From: Heterodontus francisci
Taxonomy: Eukaryota
Direction of reading: 5' to 3'
Length of the DNA: 64,000 nt
NCBI RefSeq assembly: GCF_036365525.1
Contig: NC_090387.1
Coordinates: forward strand, 18,445,766-18,509,765
Positions 3,820 to 50,329 of this stretch are shown here, in pieces (position 1 is the stretch's first letter; each line of letters starts with the position of its first letter). The position numbers and the translations under genes were made by a program. The notes under the pieces were generated by a model. That model worked only from the letters and a program-made list of their open reading frames with translations, did not search any database and was not told where the DNA came from.

Positions 3820-3936
3820 GTATCAGTCTTGGTCTTAATGCACAGGTGCTATGGCTACTACATCCATGGACGGTCGGTACATGGACATGCTGATATTGGC
3901 ATGGAGTCGATGTACCTCAACCTCAAGAAAGAAGAG
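3820..3936 (+). CDS. TMEM67: meckelin/TMEM67-like exon (117 nt) VSVLVLMHRCYGYYIHGRSVHGHADIGMESMYLNLKKEE
   Basis: ccatccag acceptor, gtaatc donor; hallmark GYYIHGRSVHGHAD motif (also in ORF 3679..3948). Confidence 0.95.
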
Positions 3937-4672: not shown

Positions 4673-4843
<171 letters not shown>

Positions 4844-13544: not shown

Positions 13545-13792
13545 AATGTGTCACAGGGATTCACTGGCTTCCATGTGATGTAGTTAAACTGAAACTGTCT
13601 GTTCACCTTGCCCCATTCTGAGCTGGAGTCCCTGCCTTGTGCAGTTTGCAGTTGTGCCCTTGTAGTTATAGAGCTTTTCGATTCCGTTTTCTCAGCTGTA
13701 AAAGACTCAGGGAGAGCTAACAAAACATTTATTGTGAGAATTTCCGACTCAGTGCATGAGGCTCAGTTATTTTTCAATCTCATTGTTTCCAG

Positions 13793-13935
13793 ATGATCGG
13801 ATTCTCTTCAGCAACGCTCTTTATTATGGCCACGAGTTGGTGCTGCTGCTCTTTGATACTCTGCTATTCTCTGTAGTGGACCTGGGCACACAGGACTTTG
13901 TTCTGGCAGCAATCATCACTTACCTTGTACAAAAG
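13793..13935 (+). CDS. TMEM67: meckelin/TMEM67-like exon (143 nt), hydrophobic segment (D)DRILFSNALYYGHELVLLLFDTLLFSVVDLGTQDFVLAAIITYLVQK
   Basis: tgtttccag acceptor, gtaagt donor, phase 1->0; matches [38 protein letters not shown]. Confidence 0.94.
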
Positions 13936-14314
13936 GTAAGTGACAGCTAACAAATATTTGGCAGATTTATGTCAGGATCATGGATTTCTGCTGTGAATGA
14001 CAAACATACAGTGACAGGCAGGAAAAGAGCCTCTGGTGCATCCAGCCTATCCCACACAATTGTGACACCTCGTGCATCACAATATATACTCCCCAACCCG
14101 CCTGAAACCATGTGACCTCCTGGGCGAGGTGGAAAACCAGATAAAAGCCCTGGCCAGTTTGGAGGAAAAAAGTCTGGGAAATTCCTCTCCGACCCCCTGT
14201 TTTGCTCAAAACTGGTCCAGGAGATCACTCACATATCAATTATCACTGATAATTCTATGCAGTTCCTACCTTTTGTACAAGGTGACCTCCAGTTCTCGCT
14301 TCAAGTTTGATGGA

Positions 14315-23948: not shown

Positions 23949-24581
23949 CCCCTCAGAAAAAGGCAACAAAGCTTTTAATTGACTTCAGATATGCATACTT
24001 GGAGCACTTCCCCACAGGGATTGCACTTTGTAGCTTTAAAGGGACAGCCTAGATTAAATGCAGCATCATCTTAGCAACTATACAACACAGACCATCCTTC
24101 AAACACGAGGTTACGTCACAGCTAGTTTTTTTTTTAATGCACCAACCATATTTGTATTCATAGATTTATTTGAAATATCTAGTGAAGGATTTTTAAAAAA
24201 TATTCCTTCCAGATATAACACCTGTTTTAACCAAAAATAACACACTATGAAGACCAGCAATGCAACACATCTAGCACCTGCTGGGCTTTCCATTAATCTT
24301 TCAAACTGACTTTGATTCCTCTCTTGCAGCAACCTTATGATCTTCTAAAGGTAAGATATTTAATATTTTTTTAAAATCCTTTTTTTGACAGGTAGACAGC
24401 ACAATGAAGTAAACCCAGCTGAACCACATGATGGGGCATGACGTTAATTGATGCATGGCTTCTTTGGCTTGCCTTTCTCGAACAAAGCCAAAAAAAAAAC
24501 TAAGGCCCTTAGTTCTCCCAAACTTTCTGCCAAATTCGAAGGGGAAATCACCAGATACCCTGAAGAAACGGTGTGAACCAT

Positions 24582-26195
24582 TCTAACAAACTTGATTGAA
24601 TTTTTCAAGGAGGTGACTAGATGTGTAGATGAGGGTAAAGCAGTTGATGTAGTCCACAGTGACTTCAGTAAGGCTTTTGATAAGGTCCCGCATGGGAGAT
24701 TGGTTAAGAAGGTAAGAGCCCATGGGATCCAGGGCAATTTGGCAAATTGGATCCAAAATTGGCTTGGTGGCAGGAGGCAGAGGGTGCTGTTTGTGGGTTG
24801 TTTTTGCAATTGGAAGCCTGTGACCAGTGGTGTACTGCCGGGATCAGTGCTGGGACCCTTGCTGTTTGTAACATACATTAATGATTTAGACGTGAATATA
24901 GGAGGTATGATCAGTAAGTTCGCAGATGACATGTAAATTGGTGGTGTGGTAAATAGTGAGGAGGAAAGCCTTAGATTACAGGACGGTATAGATGGGCTGG
25001 TAAGATGGGCAGAGCTGTGGCAAATGGAATTTAATCCTGAGAAGTGTGAGGTGATGCATTTTGGGAGGACGAGCAAGGCGAGGGAATATACAATGGATGG
25101 TCGGACCCTAGGAAGTACAGAGGGTCAGAGGGACCTTGGTGTACTTGTCCATAGATCACTGAAGGCAGCAGCACAGGTAGATAAGGTGGTTAGGAAGGCA
25201 TACGGGATACTTGCCTTTATTAGCCGAGGCATAGAATATAAGAGCAGGGAGGTTATGATGGAGCTGTATAAAACACTAATTAGGCCACAGCTGGAGTCCT
25301 GTGTACAGTTCTGGTCGCCACATTAGAGGAAGGATGTGATTGCATCGGAAAGGGTGCAGAGGAGATTCACCAGGATGTTGCCTGGGCTGGAGCATTTCAG
25401 CTATGAAGAGAGACTGGATAGTTTAGTTTAGAGATACAGCACTGAAACAGGCCCTTCGGCCCACCGAGTCTGTGCTGACCATCAACCACCCATTTATACT
25501 AATCCTACACTAATCCCATATTCCTACCACATTCCCACCTGTCCCTATATTTCCCTACCACCTACCTATACTAGTGGCAATTTATAATGGCCAATTTACC
25601 TACCAACCTGCAAGTCTTTTGGCTTGTGGGAGGAAACCGGAGCACCCGGAGAAAACCCACGCAGACACAGGGAGAACTTGCAAACTCCACACAGGCAGTA
25701 CCCAGAATTGAACCCAGGACGTTGGAGCTGTGAGGCTGCAGTGCTAACCACTGCGCCACTGTGCCGCCCAATAGGCTTGGGTTGTTTTCCTTAGAGCAGA
25801 GAAGGCTGAGGGGGGACTTGATTGAGGTATACAAAATTATGAGGGGCATTGATAGGGTAGATAGGAAGAAACTTTTTCCCTTAGCGGAGGTGTCAATAAC
25901 CAGGGGGGCATAGATTTAAGGTAAGGGGCAGGAGGTTTAGAGGGGATTTGAGGAAAAGATTTTTCATCCAGAAGGTGGCTGGAATCTGGAACACACACTG
26001 CCTGATGCGGTGGTCGAGGTAGGAACCTCACAACATTTAAGAGGTATTTAGATGAGCACTTGAAACACCATAGCATACAAGGCTATGGGCCAAGTGCTGG
26101 AAAATGGGATTAGAATAGATGGGTGCTTGATAGCCAGCACGGATACAATGGGCCGAAGGCCTATTTCTGTGCTGTATAACTCAATAACCCTAATG
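24582..26195 (+). mobile_element. 5'-truncated CR1 LINE, same subfamily as 41580-42836, interrupted by a SINE
   Basis: ORFs 24592..24936 and 24946..25326 are RT; near-identical text to 41580-42800. Confidence 0.93.
25421..25769 (-). mobile_element. tRNA-derived V-SINE (HE1-like) with CR1-type tail, nested in CR1
   Basis: Minus strand: A box (TGGCGCAGTGG), B box (GGTTCAATTC), V-domain GTGGAGTTTGCAAGTTCTCCCTGTGTCTGCGTGGG…GGTTTCCTCCCAC, tail GGGCCGAAGGGCCTGTTTC…(CTAAA)n; ATAG duplicated at the flanks. Confidence 0.88.
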
Positions 26196-31673: not shown

Positions 31674-33434
31674 CTGTGAAAAAGAAATTCACATACAACA
31701 GGGTTGAAAAATAATTGAAAGTGACTGGCTGAGAGGGGCGTTGTGGAGGACTGTGGAATATGCTTGAGGGGCTGAATGGCCTCTACCTTTGTTCCTATGT
31801 TGACTGGTGAGCCGCTCGCCTCCTTGCTGCAGGAAAGTGTCTTTGGAAATGAGGAGAACTCTTACCCACCCTGCATACTAGGTATGTCCTCTGGGGCAAC
31901 TAGAGTGTAGTGCTGGCCATACTTTCAGAAAGGTTGAATGAAATGGTCGAAGGAAGACAATCAGAGGTGAGTGTAGCGGGGAGGAAACGAGAGGGTAAAG
32001 ATTTCCTACCTGCAAATGTAAATTTCTGGGATTCTGCGGCTCCCAGATAGCCTGAAATCCTGAGCTCTGATGTTTACAATGGAGCTGCTCCATGAGAACA
32101 ATGTCTTCAGTGATGTTACCAGGGTGACCTAGCAGGGAAGGTGCTTTTATTAATGTCCTGGATATAGCTTTTGGGGCACAATTTTGAAATTTGCAGATGA
32201 CACTAAGAATTGCTTTCCGATTGATCTTGTGTTAGCAGATTGGGTTCTTGACTGATAACACTGCGCTTTTCCAAATTAAACATAATTTGCCAGTCACGAA
32301 CCCAATCTCCAATTATATTTAATTTGGAAAAGTGCAGTGTTATGCACGTGGGCATAGTGAATGTTCAACATTTAGGGAAAAGCATTAAATAATGTGGAGG
32401 AAGATAGAGATCTGGATGTTCTATTGCATAGATCTCTGAAGGTTCATTAGCAATGGTATGTCGTGATAGAGCAAAGAGGGTGTCGGACACATTCAAAAGA
32501 AAATTGATTATAAGACAAGGCATACTGTTTTGTCCTTGTACAAGATCTTGGTCAGGCTTCACCTGGAATACTGTATCCAGTTTTAATCCCTCAAATGGTG
32601 AGTGATATTAAGACTTCAGAAAGGGTGCAAAGATGAGCCATTAAACTAATTCCCAGTATAAAGCTTGTTGGTTATCAAGATAGGCTAAAAGAGTTGGGAC
32701 TCTACACTTTAGAGAAGTGTCAATTTAGGGGTGATCTGATTGGGGTTTATAAGATGATGAAAGGAATAGATTGTCTTCCAGTTTGTGCCAATTAAATGAA
32801 TTATTCCAATGCATTCCTGGCTGGTCCAAATTATTTTCCCCCAATTGGCCTGGATCTCCCAGGGGATGACATGACTTTTGGGTGGGGTGTTGTGTATTTA
32901 CTGTGAAGGTATCACAATTGTGTGGGACAGGTTGGATGGAGCAGAGGGACTTTTCCTGTTTGACATTGTTCACCTGAGACCCAACTTAAAGTCCCTCTGC
33001 TGGTTTATTCAATTTTTTTAGAAATATGTCAAACCTCTTCTGAGTTTCTTTCGTTATAAAGTGGGAAATAAATTGAATGAGAAGGACGTCTGCCTAGATT
33101 AGAAGATAAATCCTTTCCAATATGATGTTTCAAGCTTCTACTACACCAATTCACACGCACATGGAAGTTGTTGTCACCACCAAACCTTGCAGTGTGAGAG
33201 TAGTAAGACATGGTGGTGAGCTGTGCCATAATTTTCACCTTTGATTCCAAGCAGCAGGGTTACCTAACCACTCCTTGTCTTGTTTTTGTCTTCTACTCTT
33301 TTCAGCCTTGGCAATGCCATTCTCTATGAGCTTTTGTTTTTCATCTAGATGTTTTATCCTAGGCTCGGCTACTTGTAAATCTGTCTGCTGCATATTTTTT
33401 ACTAGGACCGAACTCAAGTTACTTCCACTCGTAC

Positions 33435-33548
33435 CACCAGATCTTTCTCTTCATCAAAGTTGTTCAGGTGATGGAAGGCATTTGTGTACATCTCAAGTGC
33501 TTTGGCATGGAATGTCATCTCGACTGTCACAAAATTTGAGAAAATAGC
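33435..33548 (-). CDS. CIBAR2: CIBAR2 exon 7 (114 nt) [38 protein letters not shown]
   Basis: ttattcatag acceptor, gtacga donor; FAM92 FxTIEMxFHxKAxExY motif. Confidence 0.94.
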
Positions 33549-34013
33549 CTATGAATAAAAAGAAAGAAAATGATTTGAGTTTTGCAAAGGGAATCATGCT
33601 GCAATGACCAAGCACGGACTTGATGACTCCGTCTCTGTTCTGGAACTATCACAAGACCCTTGTTCTAATGGTGGATTGGACTCCCTTTGGGAATTGCAAC
33701 TGTTGGCAATGCTGTTACAGTGGAACCTACAAGCAGAGTTAGGCCAATTAGGTGCGGTAGCACTAAGAATGAAAAGAGAGGAGGTAGTTTAGGAAGTGGT
33801 GCTTTGATGCCATGAAACTTTGGTTTTAAAGACCTAAAGATCATAGAATAAAGGGAGACTAAGGGAGGGAAGGGGTTCTTCAGTTTGAGGTCCTCAGAAA
33901 GATTAAGTTCAAGTAGCAACCTGAGAATGGCGTGAGACAAGAGAAGGCCTGAAAGAAAGGTAGGAAACTGAGACATAATTTATGAATAAATAAATCAACT
34001 CCAATCTTCATAC

Positions 34014-34118
34014 CTTAATATCCTTCATTTTTTGTTGCTGAAATTTAAAAATGATCTCCTCCAGCTGATGTGTGGTGTGATTGACATCAACTGAAGCCTT
34101 CTGCACATTGGCTTCAGC
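34014..34118 (-). CDS. CIBAR2: CIBAR2 exon 6 (105 nt) AEANVQKASVDVNHTTHQLEEIIFKFQQQKMKDIK
   Basis: ttccttccctag acceptor, gtatga donor; FAM92 LEE…FxxQKxKD motif. Confidence 0.93.
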
Positions 34119-35229
34119 CTAGGGAAGGAAACCAATGCTCACATTCAGTTAGATATGATAACAAGGAGGCAACAAATTCGCTTTTGTATGAAACGTACAC
34201 TGCACTCCAAGGGTGATGAAGGGGTGACATGCAAAAAGAAATGCAAGTTTCACTGAAATTAAATAGGTGAGCCACTACATTCCTCAAAAGCACAGAAAAC
34301 ATGCATAATGTAACCAGGTTTCTGGAGTACAGTCTCTTCTCCAGTTGGGTCTCTTGTGTGTTGAAACTGTATCACGTACAGATTTTGAAGCCATTTCCAA
34401 TCAAATACAGCATCAACTAGAAAGGTATCTGAATGAGCATTGAGCCTGAAGGCAGTGTTACTAACTCATTGTTGATGGTGACGAGCACAATCTACGTCTT
34501 GCTCAAGAGTCACATTAAAGAAAGCTGGAGTGGTAGGACAAAGGCCTACACCCTGCTTTCCATTACACTGAGCTCCTGATTTCAAATTTATCACTGTGTC
34601 AGATCAGCCATGATCTAATTGAATGGTGGAACAGACTCGAAGGGCTGAATGGCCTACTCTTGTTCTTGCATTCTTAAGTCACCATAATGCCAGAGTTATA
34701 TTGTGACTGCTGAAAAATCTATCACAATGCATGAAACATGCTGTGCTTTGTGACAATGGAATAGTCAATCAAAGATCATAGATGAGGCAAAAGAGGGAAG
34801 GATGGAGCAGTCCTTTAAACACTAGACCTGGGAGCCTGTGGCTGAATCGACTGGGAAGAATGGGATGAACTTTCCTCGCTTATTGGCTGTAAGACATCAC
34901 TGGGTCAAAATCCTGGTATTCGCTGCTTAATAGCACTGTGGGAGTACCTTCATCACATGGACTGCAGCGATTCAAGAAGAAGACAAACCACTGCCTTCTC
35001 AAGAGCAACTAGGGATGGACAATAAATGCTGGCCTTGCTACTGTTGCCCATATCCCCAAAATCACTTTTTTTTCAAGTTTTCAATATAAAGTCAGCTGAA
35101 GCATTTTCGCTCAGTTCTCCATGAGCATGAGATCATAATACAAAACTGTTCACAATCAATTTTATCTGCCACACTTCTAAGCACTGATTCATTTTATTCA
35201 GAGAAAATTGCAGGATATGTGTTGTGAGA

Positions 35230-36435
35230 AGGGCTGCAGATGTCATATACATGGACTTCAGTAAGGCGTTTGATAAGGTTCCCCATGGTAGGCTGATGGA
35301 GAAAGTGAAGGCGCATGGGGTCCAAGGTGTACTAGCTAGATGGATAAAGAACTGGCTGGGCAACAGGAGACAGAGAGTAGCAGTGGAAGGGAGTTTCTCA
35401 AAATGGAGACGTGTGACCAGTGGTGTTCCACAGGGATCCATGCTGGGACCACTGTTGTTTGTGATATACATAAATGATTTGGAGGAAAGTATAGGTGGTC
35501 TGATTAGCAAGTTTGCAGACGACACTAAGATTGGTGGAGTAGCAGATACTGAAGGGGACTGTCAGAGAATACAGCAGAATATAGATAGATTGGAAAGTTG
35601 GGCAGAAAAATGGCAGATGGAGTTCAATCAGGGCAAATGCGAGGTGATGCATTTTGGAAGATCCAATTCAAGAGTGAACTATACAGTAAATGGAAAAGTC
35701 CTGGGGAAAATTGATGTACAGAGAGATTTGGGTGTTCAGGTCCATTGTTCCCTGAAGGTGGCAACGCAAGTCAATAGAGTGGTCAAGAAGGCATACGGCA
35801 TGCTTTCCTTCATCGGACGGGGTATTGAGTACAAGAGTTGGCAGGTCATGTTACAGTTGTATAGGACTTTGGTTCGGCCACATTTGGAATACTGCGTGCA
35901 GTTCTGGTCGCCACATTACCAAAAGGATGTGGATGCTTTGGAGAGGGTGCAGAGGAGATTCACCAGGATGTTGCCTGGTATGGAGGGTGCTAGCTATGAA
36001 GAGAGGTTGAGTAGATTAGGATTATTTTCATTAGAAGGACGGAGGTTGAGGGGGGACCTGATTGAGGTGTACAAAATCATGAGAGGTATAGACAGAGTGG
36101 ATAGCAAGAAGCTTTTTCCCAGAGTGGGGGATTCAATTACAAGGGGACACGAGTTCAAAGTGAAAGGGGAAAAGTTTAGGGGGGATATGCGTGGAAATTT
36201 CTTTACGCAGAGGGTGGTGGGTGCATGGAACGCTTTGTCAGCGGAGGTGGTAGATGCGGGCACGATAGCGTCTTTTAAGATGTATCTAGACAGATACATG
36301 AATGGGCAGGAAGTAAAGAGATACAGACCCTTAGAAAATAGGCGACAGGTTTAGATAGAGGATTTGGATCGGCGTAGGCTTGGAGGGCCGAAGGGCCTGT
36401 TCCTGTGCTGTAATTTTCTTTGTTCTTTGTTCTTT
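35230..36435 (+). mobile_element. 5'-truncated young CR1-clade LINE with an uninterrupted 376-aa RT C-terminal ORF
   Basis: ORF 35224..36354 with [43 protein letters not shown]; 3' tail (tttgttc)n. Confidence 0.95.
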
Positions 36436-38016
36436 GAGAAATGGATAAACTGCACAGCACCAATGCAACCTGAGTAATCAAACACAATGCACAAGTGCAG
36501 ACTGCACAATCCAAATTCAGCTCAAAGTCACAGGTCTGGACCGAAATATTGAGCCAATTTGGAGGATAAATGTAATCATGTTATTGTGTAATATTAAACC
36601 CTTATTTAGACATCAAGAAAGTTATTTAAGTGATTTGTGGGAACCCAATGGGCAGATTGTGCAATCACAGGATGATATACTCTCACTGTAAAATAGCAGC
36701 TACTGCGTGTTACACAGAATGACACTTCCAACATTGGGAAGGCCCATCACAGCATCACTTAGAGGAATAACAGATAGTGCCGCTTCTTATAATGGACCTT
36801 CAATGAAATGCATGCCCCATATATATATATATAAGACCTTTGGGACCTCCTGAGTTTGTGAAAGGCGCTTACAAAAATGCAAATGCTTTCTTTTTCTTTA
36901 TATACATATTATTTGAAAATTCTTGCATGTAGGCTACACTTCCTGTAACTATTGACTTACTCCCTGTAACACCTCCACATCAAACTCTTCTTACTGACCA
37001 TGAGCAACACCATGGGAGATCTGCCAGTGTGCACATATATAAATGACAATGAACTGCAGCATCACAAACTTGATGACAGTGATGTATCTGACATCTACTT
37101 ACCTCTGCCAAGGCAGACTATAAAAATTAGTCAGAAAGTTTGTATATTATTGACTGATCTTTCAATTTGTTAAAGAACTCCAGGAAAACAGCCATATTAC
37201 ATATCCAGAAATTAACGCTTGTCACGTTGGGTAATGTTAAGTGCTGGGGCAAGGAAACATTTTCCCATTTCCATTAAGAAGGGGATTGTAGTCCTGGTTA
37301 GTATGTGGTCAGACAATCAAATTTATTTATTCCTACGTCATTTTCATATTATCACAAAGCTTACTATTGCAATATAAGGTATATATGTACCATAATTACC
37401 AGCTGTAGCCTGACTTCAGCTGATTTCTATTGATTAGCAGGGTTGTATTGCAAGTTAGACACTGTGCTGAACTAGTCAGTTGGTTTCTGAAGCCTAGCCT
37501 CTGTGGTCATTCTTTGTGTGTGAGCCTAGACAGCCAAAATCGGCAGGTATTCCACTGAGGAACACATCACATTTCAGCACATTCCTGACTTCACTCAACA
37601 GCCATTAAAAATGCCTTTTTCTTGCTAGATGGTCACAGGACAGTGATTAGGAGTGGGATCCTGGCTGCATTTTCCTCTCCTAAACCTAAGTGTATTGGAA
37701 ATCATTGCAGCACCATAATACATATCCTAGCTGCAATCAGCTAACTCAACACAGATCAGGGGTCAAACCTGAGTCTTTCAAACTTGCATAGGTGAATACC
37801 ACATTGAACAGTATATTTGCTGACTAGGCAGTCAGGGGAATTAAGATGTGTGGTCTTTAATCATTACTACACCCCATAGGTACAGCCACCTGTTCACATC
37901 CATTAAAACAATCTGTTCAGGGATCAAAACATGTCAAATTACATGATAAATAGTATTAGTCAATCTTTAAAACCATTTTCGTTTTCAAGCTGATTGGAAG
38001 CTTAAAAGGTACTTAC

Positions 38017-38022
38017 CAGTGA
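38017..38022 (-). CDS. CIBAR2: CIBAR2 exon 5, 6-nt microexon TCACTG (Ser-Leu)
   Basis: Minus strand reads tttttCCTTAACtgactttcccAG|TCACTG|gtaagt: U12 branch point, AG, perfect U2 donor. Supplies the two residues between …PSDRxxI and AE… seen in FAM92 proteins. Confidence 0.85.
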
Positions 38023-38774
38023 CTGGGAAAGTCAGTTAAGGAAAAAAAAACAAAAGGATAAGATAACTATTTCTAATTTCACTTACACTCCCTTGAGGAT
38101 ATGTCCAAAACTTGCATACCTACACAAAATGTAAAATGTTTCATTTGGGTGTACAATGTAATCCATACCAACTTACTGTTCTTGTATAATGTGTGATCAC
38201 AAATAGATATCTAAAAAAGAGACATGAAAATGAAAAATGGCATTGGGCTCTGATCGCATTTGGGATGGCAGTATTATCTGAGTTACACCCTGACACCACA
38301 GTTATAGTTGGCAGGATATTCAACCTCAGAGAGCATTATACCCCAGCACAATCCTGACTTCATGCATCAGCCATTAAAAAATGCCTTTTTCCTGCTCCAT
38401 GGCCACTAGATGATGATTAGGAACGGGAGTTCTGGCTGCTTTTCTCTCTCCGAAGCCTAAGGGTAGTGGGGACCAATGCAGCATCCCAGCACATATCCCA
38501 GTCCATTTGCCTGGTCACTTTTAGACCTATGGTAAGATGGTTGATGCTTTTATTTTCTTCACACTAATTTTTCACCCAACAATTGTCTTCCCTGCTGAAA
38601 GCTGTGATTCCATGCTGAAGGGCAGTTCCATGGTGGCCATTTATCCACTGGCCGTTAACAGTGATTGTTCTCAATCAATTGGGATTGCGGAAGAACAACA
38701 GAAGCAAGCCTGATAATACTGTCCTCGCCCAACAGCCACATACACACGCTTGCAACAGGGATAGTGCATACCTT

Positions 38775-41700
38775 CTGGGAGCGGAGAGGAGCAGACCTGA
38801 GGGGAGAACACCGAGCGAGAGAAGAGGATAAATAGAGCCCGAGGATCGCGGCCTAGTCACTTACCTTCCGGGAGAGCGCGGAGAGCAGTCCTGGTGCACC
38901 GGTGTTTTGAAAAAAAAAAGAAAAAAAGTCAGCAGTGACATCACAAGAAAGCTGCAAGGTGATTGGTTGGTGAGTAACTGCTGTTAGGGAATAACTCTAA
39001 ATAGCTGGGTAAGTAAACAAAGAGAAAGGTCTACAGTTTTCTTTTAAGATAGTAGGTAGTTTTTTTTTAGGGAATCAAGGTCCCTATTGTAAATAATCTA
39101 ATATTGGGGTAATTTAAGGGGATAAATTACGGGTAAGTCATGGCAGGGCAGCTTGGCAGCGTGGAGTGCTCCTCCTCTGCAATGTGGGAAGTCAGGGACA
39201 CTTTCAGTGTCCAGGGCGAACATGTGTGCAGGATGTGTCTCCAGATGCAGCCACTTGAAATCCACGTTTCGGATCTGGAGCAGTGGCCGGAGACACAGTG
39301 CAGCATCTGCGAGTCTGAGGTCATCGTGGATAGCACGTACAGGGAGGTGGTCACACTGCAGATAAAGACTGCTCAGGCAGTAAGGGAATGGTTGAGTAGA
39401 AGAACTAGGCAGGTAGTGCAGGAGTCCCCTGGGTCCATCTCCCTATCTAACAGATTTTCCGCTTTGGATACTGTTGGGGGAGATAGCGTCTCAGGGGAAT
39501 ACAGCAAGAGCCAAGTCTCTGGCACCACAGGTGGCTCAGCTGCACAGGAGGGGAGGAAAAGGAGTGGGAGAGCTATAGTGACGAGGGATTCTATCGTAAG
39601 GGGTACAGATAGGTGTTTCTGTGGCCGCAAACATGACTCCAGGATGGTATGTTGCCTCCCTGGTGCTAGGGTCAAGGATGTCACGGAGCGGCTGCAGGAC
39701 ATTCTGAAGGGGGAGGGTGAACAGTCAGAGGTCATGGTACACATTGGTACAAACGACATCGGTAAAAGGAGGGATGAGGTCCTGCAACCAGAATTTAGGG
39801 AACTAGGTAGCAGATTAAAAAGCAGGACCTCAAAGACTGTAATCTCTGGATTACTCCCGGTGCCACGTGCTAGTGAGTATAGGAATAGGAGGATAGAGCA
39901 GATGAATGCGTGTCTGAGGAGATGGTGCAGGAGGGAGGGCTTTAGTTTCCTGAATCACTGGGTCTGTTTCTGGCAAAGGTGGGAGCTTTACAAGTTGTGG
40001 ATGGGTTGCACCTGAACCAGAATGGGACCAACATCCTTGCTGGGAGGTTTGCTAGTGCTGTTGGGGGGTGGGGGGGGCAGGTTAAACTAATTTGCAGGGG
40101 AATGGGATACAGAGTGGTGGTACATTAGGGGGTGATGCACAGTCAAATATAGAAGAGAAACTGAGTCAGTCTGGAAGGCAGAGCAAACATAGATCTGTTA
40201 AGTGAATAATGCAACGCTGGATTGCATCTATTTTATTGCAAGGAATCTTACTAGTAAAGCAGATGAATTAAGAGTGTTGATTAACACTCTGGGAATATGA
40301 TATTATTGCTATCACAGAGACATGGTTGAGGGAGGGGCAGGACTGGCAGCTCAATATTCCAGGGTATAGAATCTTCAGGTGTGACAGGGGAGGGTGTAAA
40401 AGAGGAGGTGGTATTGCACTGTTGACCAAGGCGTCAATTACTGCAGTAAGGAGGGATGATATCTTAGAAGGTTCCTCAAATGAGGCCATATGGGTAGAAC
40501 GTAAAAAAAAAAAAGGGGCAATCATTTGGCTGGGAGTGTACTACAGGCCTCCAAACAGTCAGGGAGAGATAGAGGAGCAGATATGTAGGCAAATCTCAGA
40601 AAGGTGTAAAAATAAATAGGGTAATAATAGTAGGGGATTTCAACTTCCCTAATATCAACTGGGATAGTCTTAGTGCAAAAGGATTCAAGGGGGCGGAATT
40701 CTTAAAATGCATACAGGGAGAGCTTTTTGAGCCAGCACGTAGAAAGGCCTCCAAGAGAAGGGGTGGTACTGGACCTAATCCTAGGGAATGAAGCCAGACA
40801 AGTGGTAGAAGGAACCCTGAATGTCAAGGGATCTAGAGGATTGGGTAAGGAAAAAAAAGGAGGCTTATGGCAGATTCAGAGTGCTGAAAACAGTGGAGGC
40901 GCTAGAGGAGTATAGGAAGTGTGGAGGGGAGGGGTACTTAAAAAAAGTAATTAGGAGAGCAAAGAGGGGACATGAAAAAACACTGGCAGGCAAGATAAAG
41001 GAAAATCCCAAGGTGTTTTATAAGTATATTAAGGGCAAGAGGATAACCAGGGAAAGAGGAGGGCCCATTAGGGACGAAAGAGGCAATCTGTATGTGGAGC
41101 CGGAGGACATGGGTGAGGTTTTAAATGATTACTTTTCATCTGTGTTCACTTTGGAGAAGGACGATGTAGGTGTAGAGATCAGAGAGGGGGATTGTGATAT
41201 ACTTGAACATATTAGCATTGAAAGGGAGGAAGTATTAGCTATTTTAGCGAGCATAAAAGTGGATAAATCCCCAGGCCCAGATGAGATGTATCCCAGGCTA
41301 TTATGTGAGGCAAGGGAGGAGATTGCAGGGGCTCTGACACAAATGTTTAAATCCTCTCTGGCCACAGGAGAGGTGCCAGAGGATTGGAGGACAGCAAATG
41401 TAGTTACAATTATTCAAGAAGGGTAGCAGGGATAAACCAGGTAATTACAGGCCAGTGAGTCTAACATCAGTGGTAAGGAAATTATTGGAAAAAATTCTGA
41501 GGGACGGGATTAATCTCCACTTGGAAAGGCAGGGATTAATCAGGGATAGTCAGCATGGCTTTGTTGGGGGAGATTGAGTCTAACAAACTTGATTGAGGTT
41601 TTCGAGGGGGTGACTAGATGTGTAGATGAGGGTAAAGCAGTTGATGTAGTCTACATGGACTTCAGTAAGACTTTTGATAAGGTCCCGCATGGGTGATTGG

Positions 41701-42836
41701 TTAAGAAGGTAAGAGCCCATGGGATCCAGGGCAATTTGGCAAATTGGATCCAAAATTGGCTTGGTGGCAGGAGGCAGAGGGTAATGGTCGAGGGTTGTTT
41801 TTGCGATTGGAAGCCTGTGACTAGTGGTGTACTGCAGGGATCAGTGCTGGGACCCTTGCTGTATGTAGTGTACATTACTGATTTAGACGTGAATATAGGA
41901 GGTATGATCAGTAAGTTCGCAGATGACATGAAAATTGGTGGTGTGATAAATAGTGAGGAGGAAAGCCTTAGATTACAGGACGATATCGATGGGCTGGTAA
42001 GATGGGCAGAGCTGTGGCAAATGGAATTTAATCCTGAGAAGTGTGAGATGATGCATTTTGGGAGGACTAATAAGACAAGGGAATAGACAATGGATGGCAG
42101 GACCCTAGGGAGTACACAGGGTCAGAGGGACCTTGGTACACTTGTCCATAGATCACTGAAGGCAGCTGCACAGGTAGATAAGGTGGTTAGGAAGGCATAT
42201 GGGATACTTGCCTTTATTAGCTGGGGCATAGAATATAAGAGCAGGGAGATTATGATGGAGCTGTATTAAATGCTAGTTAGGCCACAGCTGGAGTACTGTG
42301 TACAGTTCTGGTCACCACATTATAGGAAGGATGTGATTGCATTGGAGAGGGTGCAGAGGAGATTCACCAGGATGTTGCCTGGGTTGGAGCATTTCAGCTA
42401 TGAAGAGAGACTGGAAAGGCTCGGGTTGTTTTCCTTAGAGCAAAGAAGGCTGAGGGAGGACCTGATTGAGGTACACAAAATTATGAGGGGCATTGATAGG
42501 TTAGATAGGAAGAAACTTAGCAGAGGGATCAATAACCAAGGGGCATAGATTTATGTTAAGGGGCAGGAGGTTTAGAGGGGATTTGAGGAAAATTATTTTT
42601 ACCCAGAGAGTGGTTGGAATTTGCAATGAACTGCCTGAAGGGGCGGTAGAGGCAGTAACCCTCACAACATTTAAGAGGTATTTAGATGAGCACTTGAAAC
42701 GCCATCGCATACAAGGCTATGGGCCAAGTGCTGGAAAATGGGATTAGAATAGATAGGTGCTTGATGGCCAGCACAGACACGGTGGGCCGAAGGGCCTGTT
42801 TCTGTGCTGTATAGCTGTATAACACTATGACGCTAT
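38775..42836 (+). mobile_element. Near full-length CR1-clade LINE, decayed (5'UTR, ORF1 SGNH esterase, APE endonuclease, RT, short-repeat tail)
   Basis: ORF 39140..40015 has xDSIVR, CLPGARVKD, HIGTND and a frameshifted DGLHLN. EN motifs ITETWL, GVYYRPP, GDFN. RT motifs KSPGPD, DFSKxFDKVPH, [20 protein letters not shown]. Stops, frameshifts and an internal deletion near 40810. Confidence 0.93.
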
Positions 42837-43194
42837 GGCAGATTGGCTATTTACCCTCCCCAGGGCCTGCGCCAAGTGTAACACCCTTCCAGTTACCAGC
42901 TAACTTAGCAGAGGCTGGGGACCCAATCTGGTCTATATGGCTCAGCTACTCATAGGGTAAATTTAGTAAGCCTCTTTTGTGTTTTGTTTCTCATCTGATG
43001 CATGTATTTCAACATTAGTGAACCCTAAGTGTCTTATTGGAGCAGACTTATGTCACAATACATGGTGGAGAACCTAGTTACACCCTTAACACTGTCTTCA
43101 GGCAAATTCCAAAAGCAAGCTGAAGACTGGCCTGCATTTGTCTGTTCAAGAAGAATCCATGAATAATTGATCTTGTGATATGAATTATTATTTT

Positions 43195-43760
43195 GAAGTT
43201 ATGCTAAACTTGTATCAAACTTTAGTTAGACTACACTGGGAGTACTGTGTACAGTTTTGGTCACCTCATTATAAAAAGGATATCGAGACACTGAAGAGGG
43301 TGCAAAAAAAAACATTTACAAGGATGATGTCAAAAATGCAAGGCTCAACCAATCAGAAAAAGGAGAACTGGGCTGGGTTTCTTTTCCCATGAAAAGAGAA
43401 GGCTGAGGGTGACCTAATAGAGGTCTTTAAAATTATGAAAGGTTCTGATAGGAAGAGGGAGAGTGTTTGTGCTTGCGGGGAAAGCAAAACTAAAGGCCAT
43501 CAACATAACATAGTCACCAAGAAATCCAACAGGGAATTCAGAAGCATGGTGAGAATGTGGAACTTGCTTCCCAAGGAGTGGTTGAGGCAAATAGTATAGA
43601 TGTATTTAAGGGCAAGATAGATAACTGAATGAGGGAAAAAGGAATTGAGGGTTTTGCTGATGGAGTTAGATGAGGAAGGATGTGAGGAGGCTTGAGTGGA
43701 GCATAAATGTCAGTATGGACTGGTTGGGCAGAGTGGCCTGTTTCTGCACTATATATTCCA
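43195..43760 (+). mobile_element. CR1 3' fragment
   Basis: ORF 43180..43392 [21 protein letters not shown]; the same family recurs at 6730-7185 and 62460-63000. Confidence 0.75.
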
Positions 43761-46750
43761 TGTATCATTTCTCTGTGCCAGCACTGTTTGTCAACATTTG
43801 TGCATGAAATAATATAAGTGAGTTGCACAATTACTGAAATATCAAATTAGCTCGTGTATATTCCTGTAAATAAATCTCCTGTAACCGTCACCCACTGGAT
43901 ATGAAATTGACCAGAGCAAATCGTAAAAAGAGAACAGTGGAAACAATACAACTTTTAAAATGATATACAAAGTGACTGATGCTAGTGGGAGATGCTGAGT
44001 GATCGGTCGGAAGCTAACCCGTCAATCTGGGCTAAAAACTGAGGGTGAGCACAATAGTAAATATTCTGAATGGTTATCTTCTTCAAGTATTCAAAAGGGA
44101 CGACTTGAATAGCATGTCTTCTCCAAGAAAAAGCATCAAGGTGTAATTCAGGAGTTTGATATAAATGAGATGGAAATCAAGTTGAAAGGCCTTCAAACAA
44201 ATAAATCCCCATAGTAAAACAACATTTGTCTCAGAGTGTTGAGAGAGACTAATAAGGAAATTTATGAGGCAGTGACAATCATGAGGGATTAACGGGGGAA
44301 ATACAGGCTAAATTGAAAAGGGTGACAAAACAGATAGACAACCACAGGCATATTACTCTTACTTCAATTCCATGTATGAGAAGAATTAATTATCAGGAAT
44401 AAACTTCAGGATTATTTGGTAAACATCAATTGACATGGCGTTAGATCCTGCCTAACCTCCTTGGTTTCTTTGAGCAAGTGACATCCCAAGTTATTAGAGT
44501 TTCAAAAGTCATCTAATAAAGTACCACATGATGGATTAGAATTAAGTTCAAAGCTTTCATGATTCAGGAAAGCTTGGCGACAGATAAGAAGGTTAGAAAA
44601 CAATGGGTACTGGTTAGCAGGATAATGTGAAGATTCGGGGGTGGGGGGTGGGGGGGCGGCGTGGTTACTGAGTGAGGTTCCCGAGGGTGAGCTATGTTGG
44701 GACCTCTACTGTTCCCATTTAATTCAATGGCCTGGATTATGGCTCAAATTTGTTTAACTCCAAAATCGGAATACCACATGAAATTGTGTGAGCAAGAGGA
44801 CACAGGTTCAAAATAGTACAGGGTCAGTCTAAGAGTGATACTAGGAAGTTTTTCTTCAACACTCAATGATCAACACTTGGAATGGACTTCTAGGCAGAGC
44901 ACTAAATCCTGGAGCCATTTAAGGAGCAATTAGATGCAACAATGGGGCAGTGTAGGGGTTGTTGATGGATAAATCAAAACAGGTTGAATGGCCTTTCTCA
45001 TCCATACTTACCTGATCGATAATTGTAGTCAGCTGACTGTAATAGCACAGCTTGAACTGATAATTAATTAAGCACTCATTCCAACATGAGGGCAGGAAAA
45101 GCTATTGAGGAGTAAATTATCCAGGAGAGCTTGAAGCACTCTGAACTTCTCTTTTGCACATTGAGCTGCAGAGTTTTATGGGAATAATTGGTAGCAAAAT
45201 TAGTCACCTGTGGGCTTGTGAAATGCCAAACAGATACCGGAGACATTAATGGTCATCTGTGACCTCTTGCAGAGAGGTCATGACTCCAAAAGAACTCATC
45301 GGAATTGGCTGTTAGGATTGTCCACCTCTCTAGCAACATCTGATGGGAACCTTTTAATTAGTTACTGTGCTGAAACAAGCTCTCATTATTCCAGGTAAAA
45401 GCTTCGACTTATGATCTTATATCAAACTTAGCTGGAAAAAAGCATTATGATCACACATTAGGCATGGTGTCCCTGTGATACTCGGAAAATCAAATTAAAA
45501 TCCATGTGATTGGGGCATTTGACGTAATTGCAAATACCTCCCATTGGAGAATCTGCTGCTTAGCCCTGCCATAACTGTAAAAATATAGAAATGCATGTTT
45601 CAAGCAAGTAAACCATCAAACTGTTAGGAGATTATTATGTGTATGATAGTGCAGTGGTTCTTATTGGACTAGTAATCCAAAGGTCTGAACTAATAATCTT
45701 GAAAATGAGAGTACAAGTCTCATCGTGCATTCATTTGTTTAGAAAAATAAAAACTTTAGATCAGTAAAAGTGAGCATGATGCTGTTGTTAAAATCCCAGT
45801 CAGTTTTCTTATGTCCTTTCCTGAAGGAATCCTGATGATCTTTTCTGGGCTGGCCTATATGTGACTCCAGTCCCACACCAATGTGGGTAATGCTTATGGC
45901 CTCGTTAAGTGGCCTACTCAGTTTTATTAAACAATAGAAGAAGACCCACCAGAACTCGGGATGGGCTCCCCTCCCATGACTGCCTTCAGCATCTGTTCTG
46001 CTTACAACAGATCATAATTTGACAAATGATGGTTAATTTTATGCATTAAATTGCTCTTTACAAAACACCCATTTAATATTGTTTTGCTTGCTCCTGTCTT
46101 TAGAAGTGGTTTAGAATGGTCACTTGAACACCAAGATGAGAATGTATTCTCTAAGCCACTGTTAGTATAAATACCATAAACTTTGCAGACTTTTTTTTTG
46201 CAAAAGGTGTCATGGCAGATATTTCAGCCTGTTTCTGTATACACTGTATAATGATATCACTACTGAAGGATTATTAATTATGATGTAACCAGAACATGGA
46301 ATAATACAAATTTAACAGTTTTATATCTCAGAAATCAATATATACATAACATAATCAATGTATATATATCTATCTATCTATATTACATATTATTCTAAAC
46401 TTGGCTCTGAGTGTCATTTGATAGACACAGTCCATATTGCAGCTTTGACGTTTTTTATAAGAAGCTTGGATGAAAGGCTGAAGGTCATAGTGCAGATTCC
46501 ATCAAGGCTAGAAAAAGCAGAAGGGCGGATGTAGTAAATGAAGACGTACTGTTTAGGTGATCTGGGAGAGGTGGTGATATCACAGGCAATCCAGGCATAT
46601 CAATCAACTCAGAATTAAGCCAACTCTTTTGTATATATTGTTCTGACATTTGAAGTCATAAATATTTGTTGTTTTAGAAGTTGAATAAATGAAATTATTT
46701 TTCTCTTTAAACTCTCTACCCTTAGAGGCAGATCTTTCAGAAAAGGATAC

Positions 46751-46852
46751 AATCCCTTGCCTGTCTGAAGGATTCCTCTGTTTCACCTTTTGCAGGTTTT
46801 CCAGTTCTTTCATTTCACGATTTCTGACCCTGTTAAATTTTTTGATGTCTCC
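46751..46852 (-). CDS. CIBAR2: CIBAR2 exon 4 (102 nt) GDIKKFNRVRNREMKELENLQKVKQRNPSDRQGI
   Basis: taaattag acceptor; donor is GTATCCTTT (U12-type); RQxxPSDR motif. Confidence 0.93.
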
Positions 46853-47589
46853 CTAATTTAGATATAGAAAAAAAATTAATGTGCTTTTCTAAAACAATGA
46901 AATGTATAAACTTTTATAATCCAGTATTCTAAGAAGTTAATTTTTTTTATTGTGACAGGAACTCTAATTCAGTTGTATAAGGTAAACCTTTTGGTGTTGT
47001 TCCGTGAGTTATGTGGGAATTCCATAGACATCTGTTGAAAGCCCACTAATTTCCCAAATTACCTGGATCATGCTTTTTCCCACCTTTATGTCCTGTAAAG
47101 ATACTTTTCCCTTTGAGAAACGTTTATCACTGTTTTCCTCTGATAGCCCCACTTTCTAAACCAGAGCTCTGGAATTTACTTTTTCGTCAGAGGTTTCTCC
47201 TCAACAGTTGTTGACATGGCCCTTGACCATGTTTTAAACTCCCCAGCAAGCCTACCCTATCAAGCCCCTTAAGAATTTTGCCTGTTTCAATGAGATTGCA
47301 TTTCATTCTTCTAAATTCCAAGGCATACTCTCCCAATGTATTCAATATCTCCTGATAGGACAATTCTTTTATTCCAGGAATCAATCAAGTGAAATTTCCT
47401 CCAAGGCCACTGTATCCTTCCTTAAGCAAAGAGACCAATACTGTACACAGTATTCCAGATGTGGTCTCACCAAGACCCTATACAATTGCAGTAAGATTTC
47501 TTCACTCTGTATATTTGATTTCCTAATTGCTTGCTGTACCTGCATGTTAACGGTCTGTAGCCTACAGATACGTCTGTGTGAGTTAGCAA

Positions 47590-48410
47590 TTTCCATATGT
47601 TTCATCAATCTAGTATACTGTATTCGGTGCTTATGGTCCAGTCATCTCTACATCAGGAAACCAAATGCAGATTAGATGGCCCCATGTCTGACCTTGACGT
47701 CTCTGTGGCTTGCCATTTGAATAACTCTCCCTGCCATTCCCATCTCCATCTTTGGCTTCTTATGCTATTCCAACTAAAGACAAACTTCCCATGGGCACTC
47801 CAGCCCTGTGAAGTCCTCTGTACCTTACACCTTAGCTATATCAAACCTTTTCCTTGCAGCTGTTGCTGTTCGAAGAAAGGGAGGCAGGATTAAACTTTGG
47901 ACATCAAATTTTTGTCAGAACATGGTGTTGTTCAGGAGGGAAGAACAGTGGGGGTGGTAGCTGTATCTCCAGAGCTGTTGGAGCCCGTTGTGTGTTTCCA
48001 AGATTTTCTATTCCCAAGACTAATTTTCTCCAGTCTTGCTTTTTAACTTCCATGGGTATTTTCCAAGGTTTGTTCACAGCCTTGGCTGTTTGCATGTTCA
48101 TTGAACTCAGATGATTTTTTTTATCATCGAACAGTGTTCAATGAAGCAGATTGCAGGTTGCCCAACACATTGAGTCCCTCCCCGCCCCCTCTGTCTGGGG
48201 TTTCACCCTCACTCCACACCACCCATTCCCACCACCCCCCCCCCCCCCCTCCCCCATTTTCTTTCGTAACTTTACTTGGTGGCTTAGTTATCTTTCAACT
48301 TTCAGTTCTGAAAGAAAGATTATACCCAAAAATGATAAGCCCACTTCTCTCATGACAATTGACCTACTCTGAACTTTCTTTTGACTTCCAGCATTTGCAG
48401 TTTATTTTTC
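47590..48410 (+). mobile_element. Highly decayed Penelope-like fragment (GIY-YIG remnant and pLTR)
   Basis: tagtatactgtattcggtgc…ctctacatcaggaaaccaaatgcagatt…gtggcttgccattt parallels 17430-17570; pLTR-like end at ~48300-48400. Confidence 0.6.
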
Positions 48411-49685
48411 CTTTTGTTTTCCACTGTCCCCTGCCCTGCCTTCACCCTCTCCGACCGTGTATCCTTCAGCCGAGAGGCAAAATGGCCTGAATCACAGATG
48501 TCACCATAATAGCAGACCACATCAGCACTTGGAGAAATCCACAGTAACAGATACCATGAACAGGCTGTGACAGTAATGTTTTAATACTGTGCTGACCAGC
48601 CTCTCTCCTTGCACCTCTGTAAACACATGCGCATCCAAATCTCTGCTGCCTGAATCCTAACTTGCACCAAGTCCCATTCACCCATCACACCTTTGGTTGC
48701 TGACCGACATTGACACCAAGTCCAGCTTTTAAAATTCACATTCTTGTTTTCGAATCCCTCCATAGCCTCGCTCCTCCTTACATCTGTAACCTACTCCAGC
48801 CCTACAACCCTCTGAGATATCTGCGCTCCTCTAATCCTGGCCTCTTGAGCATCCTGAATTCAAAGTGATTATTGACAACGTGGCTGGCAGCTGACATCAT
48901 CAGACTGCGCCAAACTGCGCACAGGTGCAGATTGGCTCCTACTCTCTGCTCATGGGCTGCGCTCCACATTGCCAGGACTGGTTGGCGCATGTGCAGATGA
49001 CGTCATCGCGTAACACAGGCAGTGACTGGCGGTGCGGGAAGTGGGGAGAGCGCAGCCGAAGACCTCCTCCTCCCTCTGCCTGCTCCCCCCACCCCCCGCT
49101 TGCTCGCTCACTCCCTGCCCCTCCGCTCGCTCACTACCCCCCCCCCCCCCCAACCCCACCGCTCGCTCACTGCACCCCCCCCCCAGCTCATTCCCTCCCG
49201 GCCCGCTCACTCACTCCCTCCCTGGCCCACTCACTCACTCCCTCCCCGGCCCGCTCGCTCTCTCTCTCTGGCCATTGTGTGCTGCCATGTGTTTAGGTTG
49301 CCTTCCTGTGATTATTTGAGCAACGCCATCTTTAGTCCTGGCAGCTGCCTGACATCGCAGACTGTGACATTTTAGTGGCACAGGCTGCATTTGCGCATGT
49401 GCCATTGCAGCACCACCTAGTGGTTGCGATGTCAGCAAATGCAGCCTCCTAAATTTTATTCACTCCACCACTGGTGGGCATGCATTCAGCTGCCTGAGCT
49501 CTAAGCTCTGGAATTCCCTCCCTAAATCTCTCTACCTCTCTCTCCTCCTTTAAAACGGTTCTTAAAACCTACCCCTTTGCTGTCCTGATATCCACTTATG
49601 TGGTTCGGTGACAAATATTGTCTGTGAAGTGCTATTGAGGCGTTTACTACATTAAAGGTGCTATATTAATGAAAGTTATTATTTA
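48410..49685 (+). mobile_element. L2 LINE 3' fragment interrupted by an unclassified GC-rich insertion (~48862-49448)
   Basis: L2-type 3' text (cccatcacacct…ctccagccctacaaccctc…ctggcctcttgagcatcc | cactccaccactggtgg…ctctggaattccctccctaaa…aaaggtgctata) is split by the insert. Confidence 0.6.
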
Positions 49686-49796
49686 TATGAAGCTTTTGGT
49701 ATCTGGATAGAAAAAAAATGACTTTTGATTAATTGGAAGTATTACTGTGGAAAAGCACAGTAACAATAATTAAATAGCAATGAAGAAATAAAATAC

Positions 49797-49865
49797 CCGT
49801 TTGGATTTTGTCAGCGGACCATATGCCTTTAGTGGTCCAATAACCTTGGCATCCAGTCTTTCCAC
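49797..49865 (-). CDS. CIBAR2: CIBAR2 exon 3 (69 nt) VERLDAKVIGPLKAYGPLTKSKR
   Basis: ttgttttag acceptor, gtattt donor; FAM92 VERLExKVVxPLKxYG motif. Confidence 0.93.
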
Positions 49866-50329
49866 CTAAAACAATTCAGAGAGGTAGGCAAAAAAAGAAT
49901 AATATTAACGACCAATCTTGTGAAGAAATTGCTGCAACAAAGTGAATTGTGAAATTATGATACAAAAACGTGACTTAGCAATAACAGAAACATCTTTTCA
50001 TGGTTTGACTAATTCCCTCATGTGTTAATTATCTTCTGTGTTGTGGTAATCACCTTGTATCACCTAATCTCCATAATCTCCCTGAGCACTTCATCTTTCA
50101 TAGGTGTGGGAAGTCTCAGCGCAGTGAAAGCTTATTATCAATGATCATTATTGGAATGTTACCATTTGCTAAGGGTCCCTTATGAAAAATAGGTTATTCC
50201 TCAAAGGCAGGTTATGATAGGGCAATGGTTATGGTATTGTTCTAGCAACCTACAGATCATGAATTCAAGTCCCACTACAGAGCTTTAATGAGTTGAATGA
50301 AGTCTGTTAACATAGATTGTGCAGGTTCT

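Follow-up and report, generated by a model that had tools for sequence, protein, structure and literature searches.

In the FAM92 family, dependence on a minor intron has been published for CIBAR1/Fam92a under a damaged minor spliceosome. According to the accessible part of PMC12750831, CIBAR1 is a ciliary gene with a U12 intron, and its canonical transcript is down 69.9% in SCNM1-mutant fibroblasts. In U11-null mouse limbs, both exons flanking the Fam92a minor intron were skipped, as reported in the available text of bioRxiv 10.1101/2022.11.10.516037. Here, the paralogue CIBAR2 was analyzed in a 64-kb stretch of the genome assembly of the shark Heterodontus francisci (the window), where U12-type signals surround an exon of six nucleotides (nt). 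Shared with the published case are the gene family and the encoded dipeptide, which is found in mammalian structures, next to the minor-spliceosome dependence of CIBAR1 and the flanking-exon skipping after U11 loss. The paralogue and the species are different, and a 6-nt downstream exon is unmentioned for CIBAR1 in the accessible parts of these sources.

GT-AG introns of the U12 type, as treated in the available sections of PMC8329584, have in common with CIBAR2 intron 4 the donor GTATCCTT, a TTCCTTRAC branch site close to the acceptor and the occurrence as a lone minor intron among major ones. The difference lies in the downstream exon, which is too short in CIBAR2 for cross-exon contacts between U1 and U11/U12. 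Vertebrate and SRRM4-dependent neural microexons (PMC13149111 and PMC10250204, as far as their text was available) likewise measure 3-15 nt in multiples of three, are conserved and are often missed by aligners. In contrast to these microexons, the CIBAR2 exon has a U12-type acceptor and no upstream UGC, appears constitutive and is located in a core helix rather than in a surface loop or linker.

The exon is present in RefSeq, and a minor intron is already on record for the FAM92 family. What this analysis adds is the case of CIBAR2 in a shark, an indication that the layout may go back to the bilaterian ancestor and a survey of the forms that bypass the exon in frame. Minor-intron and microexon databases presumably list CIBAR intron 4. 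No account of a CIBAR/FAM92 microexon or of a CIBAR2 minor intron was found in the literature covered, which comprised few subscription papers and no supplements, and nothing on a 6-nt CIBAR exon was found in PMC4667643 or PMC10760453.

A six-base exon behind a U12-type intron

The eight larger exons of the window account letter by letter for the annotated H. francisci CIBAR2-like protein (RefSeq XP_067905208.1; P0001 below), with the exception of Ser143 and Leu144. The features around these two residues are as follows.

46751-46852, minus strand: exon 4, 102 nt, phase 0-0, residues 109-142 (exact P0001 match; Pfam PF06730; structure model).
46741-46750, minus strand: U12-type 5' splice site GTATCCTTTT at the end of exon 4, with the same motif at the CIBAR1 exon end.
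38023-46750, minus strand: intron 4, GT-AG, U12-type, 8,728 nt, with many high-copy repeats.
38035-38043, minus strand: U12-type branch site TTCCTTAAC, with the branch A presumed 13 nt before the exon.
38017-38022, minus strand: exon 5, the 6-nt microexon TCACTG, encoding Ser143-Leu144 (annotated protein), near the start of BAR helix 3.
38011-38016, minus strand: U2-type 5' splice site GTAAGT of intron 5 (3,898 nt).
34014-34118, minus strand: exon 6, 105 nt (P0001 mapping), its acceptor with a pyrimidine tract and without a U12 branch consensus.

A preliminary description of this DNA had claimed U12 signals in intron 4 and an in-frame 6-nt microexon with a U2-type donor. Both were found as described: GTATCCTTTT begins at 46750, immediately after the final codons of exon 4 (Q-G-I), TTCCTTAAC occupies 38043-38035, and TCACTG at 38022-38017 is followed by GTAAGT. 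The observation of U12-type signals around a 6-nt exon on the minus strand is confirmed as real. The donor fits RTATCCTT and is placed exactly at the homology-defined end of exon 4. The branch site fits TTCCTTRAC, occurs as a 9-mer once on the minus strand of the window and is separated by a 10-nt spacer from the AG (38024-38023, minus strand). The usual distance from a U12 branch to the exon is 11-13 nt; the presumed branch A is located at 13 nt in CIBAR2 and at 11 nt in CIBAR1. Exon 5 begins and ends in phase 0, which keeps the frame, and fits the definition of a microexon (3-27 nt).

Observed directly were the signals, the frame, the annotated residues, the CIBAR1 layout and the genes for the U11 and U12 small nuclear RNAs (snRNAs). 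As a whole, the locus is with high probability best explained by a U12-type intron 4 of CIBAR2 together with an in-frame six-base exon, forming a leaky dependency on the minor spliceosome. Removal of intron 4 by the minor spliceosome is very likely, and inclusion of exon 5 in the main transcript is likely.

Position and frequency of the signals

Neither motif alone beats chance over the whole window, and the evidence is positional. GTATCCTTT had 1 match in the 64 kb with 0.66 expected, and at least 1 match was obtained in 50 of 100 shuffles. The combination of branch site, AG, 6 nt and GT also had 1 match, with 0.15 expected, a count reached in 14 of 100 shuffles. The cassette was judged real because of its position, with the donor at a homology-fixed exon end in both paralogues. 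PF06730 matches exon 4 to profile position 148, two residues short of the exon end, and exon 6 from position 153, leaving exactly two profile positions between the exons. Six candidate 6-nt exons with a good donor were found between exons 4 and 6; TCACTG alone codes for the annotated Ser-Leu and is preceded, at the proper spacing, by an exact U12 branch consensus.

A longer exon 4 or exon 6 as the source of Ser-Leu was ruled out by the reading frame. Read-through of exon 4 yields V-S-F, and the six bases preceding exon 6 end in an in-frame stop, so that an extension of exon 6 cannot supply the two residues.

The paralogue CIBAR1 and the minor spliceosome

In the shark assembly (G000), contigs C5 and C17 contain the CIBAR1 and CIBAR2 loci, respectively. 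CIBAR1 exon 4 ends at the U12 donor GTATCCTTAA (C5:68575934), and the layout matches that of CIBAR2: the donor GTATCCTT is followed by TTCCTTGAC, 8 nt, AG, ACACAG and GTTTGT at C5:68566094. When strict donors were required, 4 candidates came up in the CIBAR1 intron, and all of them lacked both a branch site and suitable residues. ACACAG surfaced only when any GT was allowed, alongside other loose candidates; its match to the branch consensus set it apart first, and the annotated TQ did so next. It predicts Thr-Gln, and the annotated CIBAR1 protein P0056, compared afterwards, has TQ at this position. The flanking introns are 9,840 and 1,028 nt long in CIBAR1 compared with 8,728 and 3,898 nt in CIBAR2; because these lengths differ, the layout appears to have lasted since the duplication. 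The earlier expectation that the arrangement is conserved thus held, with the same cassette in CIBAR1 and the dipeptide kept in vertebrate proteins and structures.

For the minor spliceosome itself, the assembly contains U12 snRNA (140 bits, 3 matches above the cut-off) and U11 snRNA (110 bits, 1 match). The calculated U12 duplex at the CIBAR2 branch site had -10.2 kcal/mol, the best of 7 acceptors, and that of CIBAR1 (-7.1 kcal/mol) was inside the controls (-6.1 to -9.4). For U11, a duplex of -6.9 kcal/mol was obtained versus -3.2, -4.0 and an off-register -7.9 kcal/mol.

No TGC (UGC) is present within 40 nt upstream of the microexon in CIBAR1 or CIBAR2, and therefore SRRM4-type regulation is not indicated. 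Two words similar to U11 sites, ATATCCT at 38102-38096 and TATCCTTTT at about 38061-38052 (both minus strand), are located 40-80 nt upstream of the microexon and may be chance occurrences; the CIBAR1 counterpart was checked up to 38 nt upstream.

The dipeptide in annotated and transcript-derived proteins

Ser-Leu is carried by the annotated XP_067905208.1. A CIBAR2 protein search gave 54 proteins, which were classified by eye. Both residues were present in 29 of them (2 of these with five extra residues), 9 lacked exactly the two residues, and 5 lacked the exon 4-5 segment. In another 2, exon 4 ends at its internal GT, 3 continue with V-S-F/L, which is the translation of the GTATCCTT donor, and 6 were partial or otherwise different. 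The dipeptide was seen as SL, SQ, TQ, TL, AQ and SR. We read the two-residue-short models as probable misses of the aligner, with true splicing of exon 4 to exon 6 as the alternative. The prediction that gene finders miss the exon agrees with the 9 proteins without exactly these residues.

Proteins from the Logan source are short assembled contigs and hence spliced sequence, from unnamed or fish/rodent clusters. In alignment A1 (34 rows), all 10 full-length Logan-sourced vertebrate proteins have SQ. Six short Logan fragments were excluded (P0044, P0050, P0114, P0140, P0194 and P0195); P0044 has no residues at this position, and P0050 diverges. SQ is also carried by both solved CIBAR1 structures, 8CEG and 9UHD. 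Among short transcript-derived proteins, no candidate spanning the junction was found.

Five extra residues just before exon 6 are present in the skate and bamboo shark CIBAR2 models P0010, P0014, P0016 and P0185. They occur with or without exons 4-5 and could come from a further small exon or an upstream acceptor; their source was not located within the window.

In-frame bypass forms and their predicted proteins

Two further features are needed for the forms that circumvent the microexon.

49797-49865, minus strand: exon 3, 69 nt, ending in phase 0 (RefSeq protein mapping).
46781-46786, minus strand: internal GT donor of exon 4, AAG/GTGAAA, in frame, a candidate U2 bypass at which ray and frog deletions of residues 131-144 begin.

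Exons 3, 4, 5 and 6 all join in phase 0. Joining exon 3 to exon 6 loses 36 residues in frame, and use of the internal GT, a candidate site in this species, would lose 14 residues in frame. The deletions in this region of A1 all end at residue 144 (10 of 10) and start at residues 143 (4), 109 (3), 131 (2) and 86 (1), corresponding to exon 5, exon 4, the internal AAG/GTGAAA site and exon 3. In alignment A2, whose 31 rows were chosen mostly as short isoforms and do not give a frequency, 14 rows are without residues 109-144, including sharks, a skate, a caecilian and mammals, and 4 rows are without residues 143-144. These bypass forms are annotation models or database isoforms, not counted reads. 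The preliminary description had called the microexon hard to skip, since skipping would join a U12 donor to a U2 acceptor. This stood for the microexon alone and failed for the pair of exons 4 and 5, which is skipped in frame in database isoforms. A hybrid U12-U2 junction need not arise, as both the exon 3-6 join and the internal GT of exon 4 avoid one.

The structure model of P0001 (predicted template modelling score (pTM) 0.67; predicted local distance difference test (pLDDT) >90 over the BAR domain; 35-row alignment) places helix 2 up to residue 134, the tip loop at 135-138 and helix 3 at 139-208. In this model, Ser143-Leu144 are in the second turn of helix 3, and exon 4 encodes the distal half of BAR helix 2 plus the tip loop. 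Human FAM92A1 has membrane-binding Arg132, Arg134 and Arg136 at the far end of the arm, according to the available part of PMC11266426, and these arginines fall in exon 4 by alignment. Skipping exons 4 and 5 would remove them and leave the dimer core. In P0007, a naturally occurring isoform with the skip, three helices are still predicted; the tip pLDDT is ~47-51 and the pTM 0.41 versus 0.67 for the full-length protein, a weak comparison because P0007 was modelled on a shallower alignment (17 versus 35 rows).

Age of the layout

Alignment A3 consists of 50 of 150 listed distant representatives, picked for near full-length matches; 20 of the 50 were identified by name. Residues 143-144 are lost in 6 of the 50 rows; no other two-residue deletion recurs, and two are found in a single row each. 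The six rows are genome-based models from one bat and five protostomes (Lottia, Tubulanus, Nymphon, Saccostrea and Chamberlinius). All 4 rows identified as Logan/JGI short contigs have two residues at this place, and V-S or V-S-F stands at the boundary in Octopus isoform X2 and Paralvinella. The same error signature in protostomes as in vertebrates suggests the same exon in the bilaterian ancestor, and the V-S-F read-through in Paralvinella suggests the same donor. Judged from protein models, a bilaterian age of the microexon layout is suggested, and an origin before the vertebrates is likely. The exon would account for an annotation error seen repeatedly in FAM92 genes, in sharks as well as in molluscs. 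For Lottia, two FAM92 models with consecutive accessions (P0220 and P0228) were seen, one with and one without the two residues.

Proposed order of splicing and alternative readings

U11/U12 would read donor and branch site across intron 4 without needing a tract bound by U2AF. The accessible sections of PMC8329584 state that U11/U12 recognizes donor and branch site, that U1 and the minor spliceosome cooperate across exons, and that minor introns are slower and have been proposed as rate-limiting. An exon of six bases is too short for exon definition in the usual way, and the two introns beside it are therefore probably spliced out in sequence. In the somewhat favored order, the major intron 5 would leave first from its strong GTAAGT site, giving a 111-nt exon 5-6, and the slower minor intron 4 would come next. 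A downstream-first majority (58% versus 26%), which goes with shorter length, has been reported for SRRM4-dependent microexons in the available text of PMC10250204. When minor splicing lags, the major spliceosome would likely join exon 3 to exon 6 or use the internal GT of exon 4, and the bypass product would be a BAR protein still in frame but with a shorter arm. The cassette would then be a leaky dependency on the minor spliceosome rather than a lock. Through it, the full-length protein is likely coupled to the minor splicing machinery, though bypass by joint skipping of two exons is probable. The ancient layout was likely kept because loss of either intron, or its conversion to the U2 type, would disturb recognition of so small an exon. 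The locus would provide a natural, long-conserved test case for the recognition of a 6-nt exon whose sides belong to different spliceosomes. The CIBAR protein with exons 4 and 5 skipped would be the product to seek in minor-spliceosome ciliopathies (SCNM1, RNU4ATAC, U11 loss).

Several observations limit or speak against this interpretation. Of 24 available RNA runs, 4 were mapped over window positions 33300-50300, and the junction was absent among the 15 joints listed of 1,765, in tables swamped by repeats, a result that weighs neither for nor against the exon; one run showed low cover in the bins containing exons 3, 4, 6 and 7. Models lacking only the two residues amount to 9 of 54 proteins and 4 of 34 rows in A1, several of them from RefSeq. 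The CIBAR1 microexon has the weaker donor CAG/GTTTGT, so the consensus GTAAGT is not conserved, and the snRNA pairing energies did not cleanly separate U12 from U2 sites. That the published CIBAR1 minor intron is intron 4 we infer; its number is absent from the accessible parts of the sources. As for the splicing order, the available text of a preprint (10.64898/2026.05.02.722430) describes removal of the upstream intron first at neuronal microexons, and both order studies concern microexons flanked by U2 introns.

With chances only a little short of even, the arrangement could be a frozen accident, in which an ancient pair of introns 6 nt apart is spliced constitutively and the isoforms with skipped exons are noise. 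The anatomy described for the leaky dependency would be unchanged, and the two readings differ on function only. Crosstalk between spliceosomes mostly reinforces constitutive splicing, as stated in the accessible part of PMC8329584, the dipeptide varies freely, and the skipped isoform is predicted to fold with low confidence at its new tip. However, the form without exons 4 and 5 recurs in both paralogues from sharks to mammals, a recurrence that noise could also yield given the shared phase-0 boundaries. A frozen constitutive layout is no less likely than a regulatory role in normal tissue.

It is unlikely that the cassette has been a conserved switch since the bilaterian ancestor, with minor-spliceosome activity setting the ratio of full-length CIBAR to the form lacking exons 4 and 5. 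If it were, the short isoform, still with its dimer core, would be missing the distal arm and with it one of the arginine clusters that bind membranes. It would bend membranes less well at the base of the cilium, which would be part of the reason why minor-spliceosome disorders resemble ciliopathies.

A microexon that cannot be bypassed, so that minor-spliceosome activity sets the CIBAR2 mRNA level via intron retention and decay, is more doubtful still. The preliminary description had suggested such a rate-limiting checkpoint, an idea put forward for minor introns in general; within the family, the evidence for it comes from CIBAR1 under a damaged minor spliceosome. The fall of CIBAR1 transcript and protein when SCNM1 is defective would fit, as would the proposed rate-limiting role of minor introns (PMC8329584, available sections) and the acceptor of exon 6 without a U12 branch consensus. 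In-frame isoforms without residues 109-144 are nevertheless found in 3 of 34 rows of A1 and in 14 of 31 rows of A2, which was picked for short isoforms, and loss of U11 in the mouse leads to skipping of both exons next to the Fam92a minor intron (bioRxiv 10.1101/2022.11.10.516037, available text).

We regard as very improbable that the microexon is an alternative cassette, with the U12 donor also spliced straight to the exon 6 acceptor and a protein shortened by two residues as the result. Residues 143-144 alone are missing from RefSeq entries of Cetorhinus, Pristis, Hypanus and Mustelus, and a mixed join of U2 donor and U12 acceptor occurs in MAPK12 under U12 snRNA mutation, according to the accessible part of PMC8329584. 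The two-residue loss was, however, seen in none of the 10 Logan rows of A1 and in none of the 4 A3 rows identified as short Logan/JGI contigs; all 6 two-residue-short rows of A3 are genome-based models. It would also be predicted to shift the register of helix 3, and the UGC motif is lacking within 40 nt upstream in either paralogue. Chance motifs, with the two residues derived from elsewhere, can practically be discarded: neither motif is rare by itself in 64 kb, yet exon 4 read-through and the stop before exon 6 leave no such source, and the same cassette is present with its annotated residues in CIBAR1.

Gene identity and neighboring features

The remaining parts of the gene model are listed below.

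29593-62098, minus strand: CIBAR2 coding span, nine exons (RefSeq protein match; tree).
62098-62079, 52997-52763, 33548-33435, 31673-31575 and 29733-29593, minus strand: CIBAR2 exons besides exons 3-6 (RefSeq protein mapping).

The Pfam profile PF06730 (BAR domain) is present in the window gene. In a quick IQ-TREE run with 29 proteins, on which the gene identity is based, this gene was placed within the CIBAR2/FAM92B clade with a support of 100 in the Shimodaira-Hasegawa-like approximate likelihood ratio test (SH-aLRT), in line with its earlier assignment to CIBAR2. The CIBAR1 clade had an SH-aLRT of 96, and the second FAM92 locus of the genome (on C5) grouped with it (SH-aLRT 96). The name CIBAR1, prompted by the TMEM67-like neighbor, was rejected because of the tree and of a second TMEM67 that adjoins the true CIBAR1. 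A genome search gave 7 exon matches to PF06730, a lower bound, all at the two loci, and no third FAM92 locus or retrocopy was found in it.

Meckelin (TMEM67-like) exons are located in the window at 2646-2744, 3820-3936, 4700-4834 and 13780-13938 (plus strand), tail to tail with CIBAR2. This meckelin gene lies at 18.38-18.46 Mb of C17, and a second one is found beside CIBAR1 at 68.14-68.35 Mb of C5. The shark seems to keep two TMEM67 copies; humans, we assume, have one, beside CIBAR1. Each paralogue having its own meckelin neighbor fits duplication of a whole block. Remains of retroelements in and near CIBAR2 are located at 35188-36351, 24577-24933 and 39137-40012 of the window (all plus strand); they comprise RVT_1 matches and, within CIBAR2 intron 4, a match to an SGNH/GDSL-like domain.

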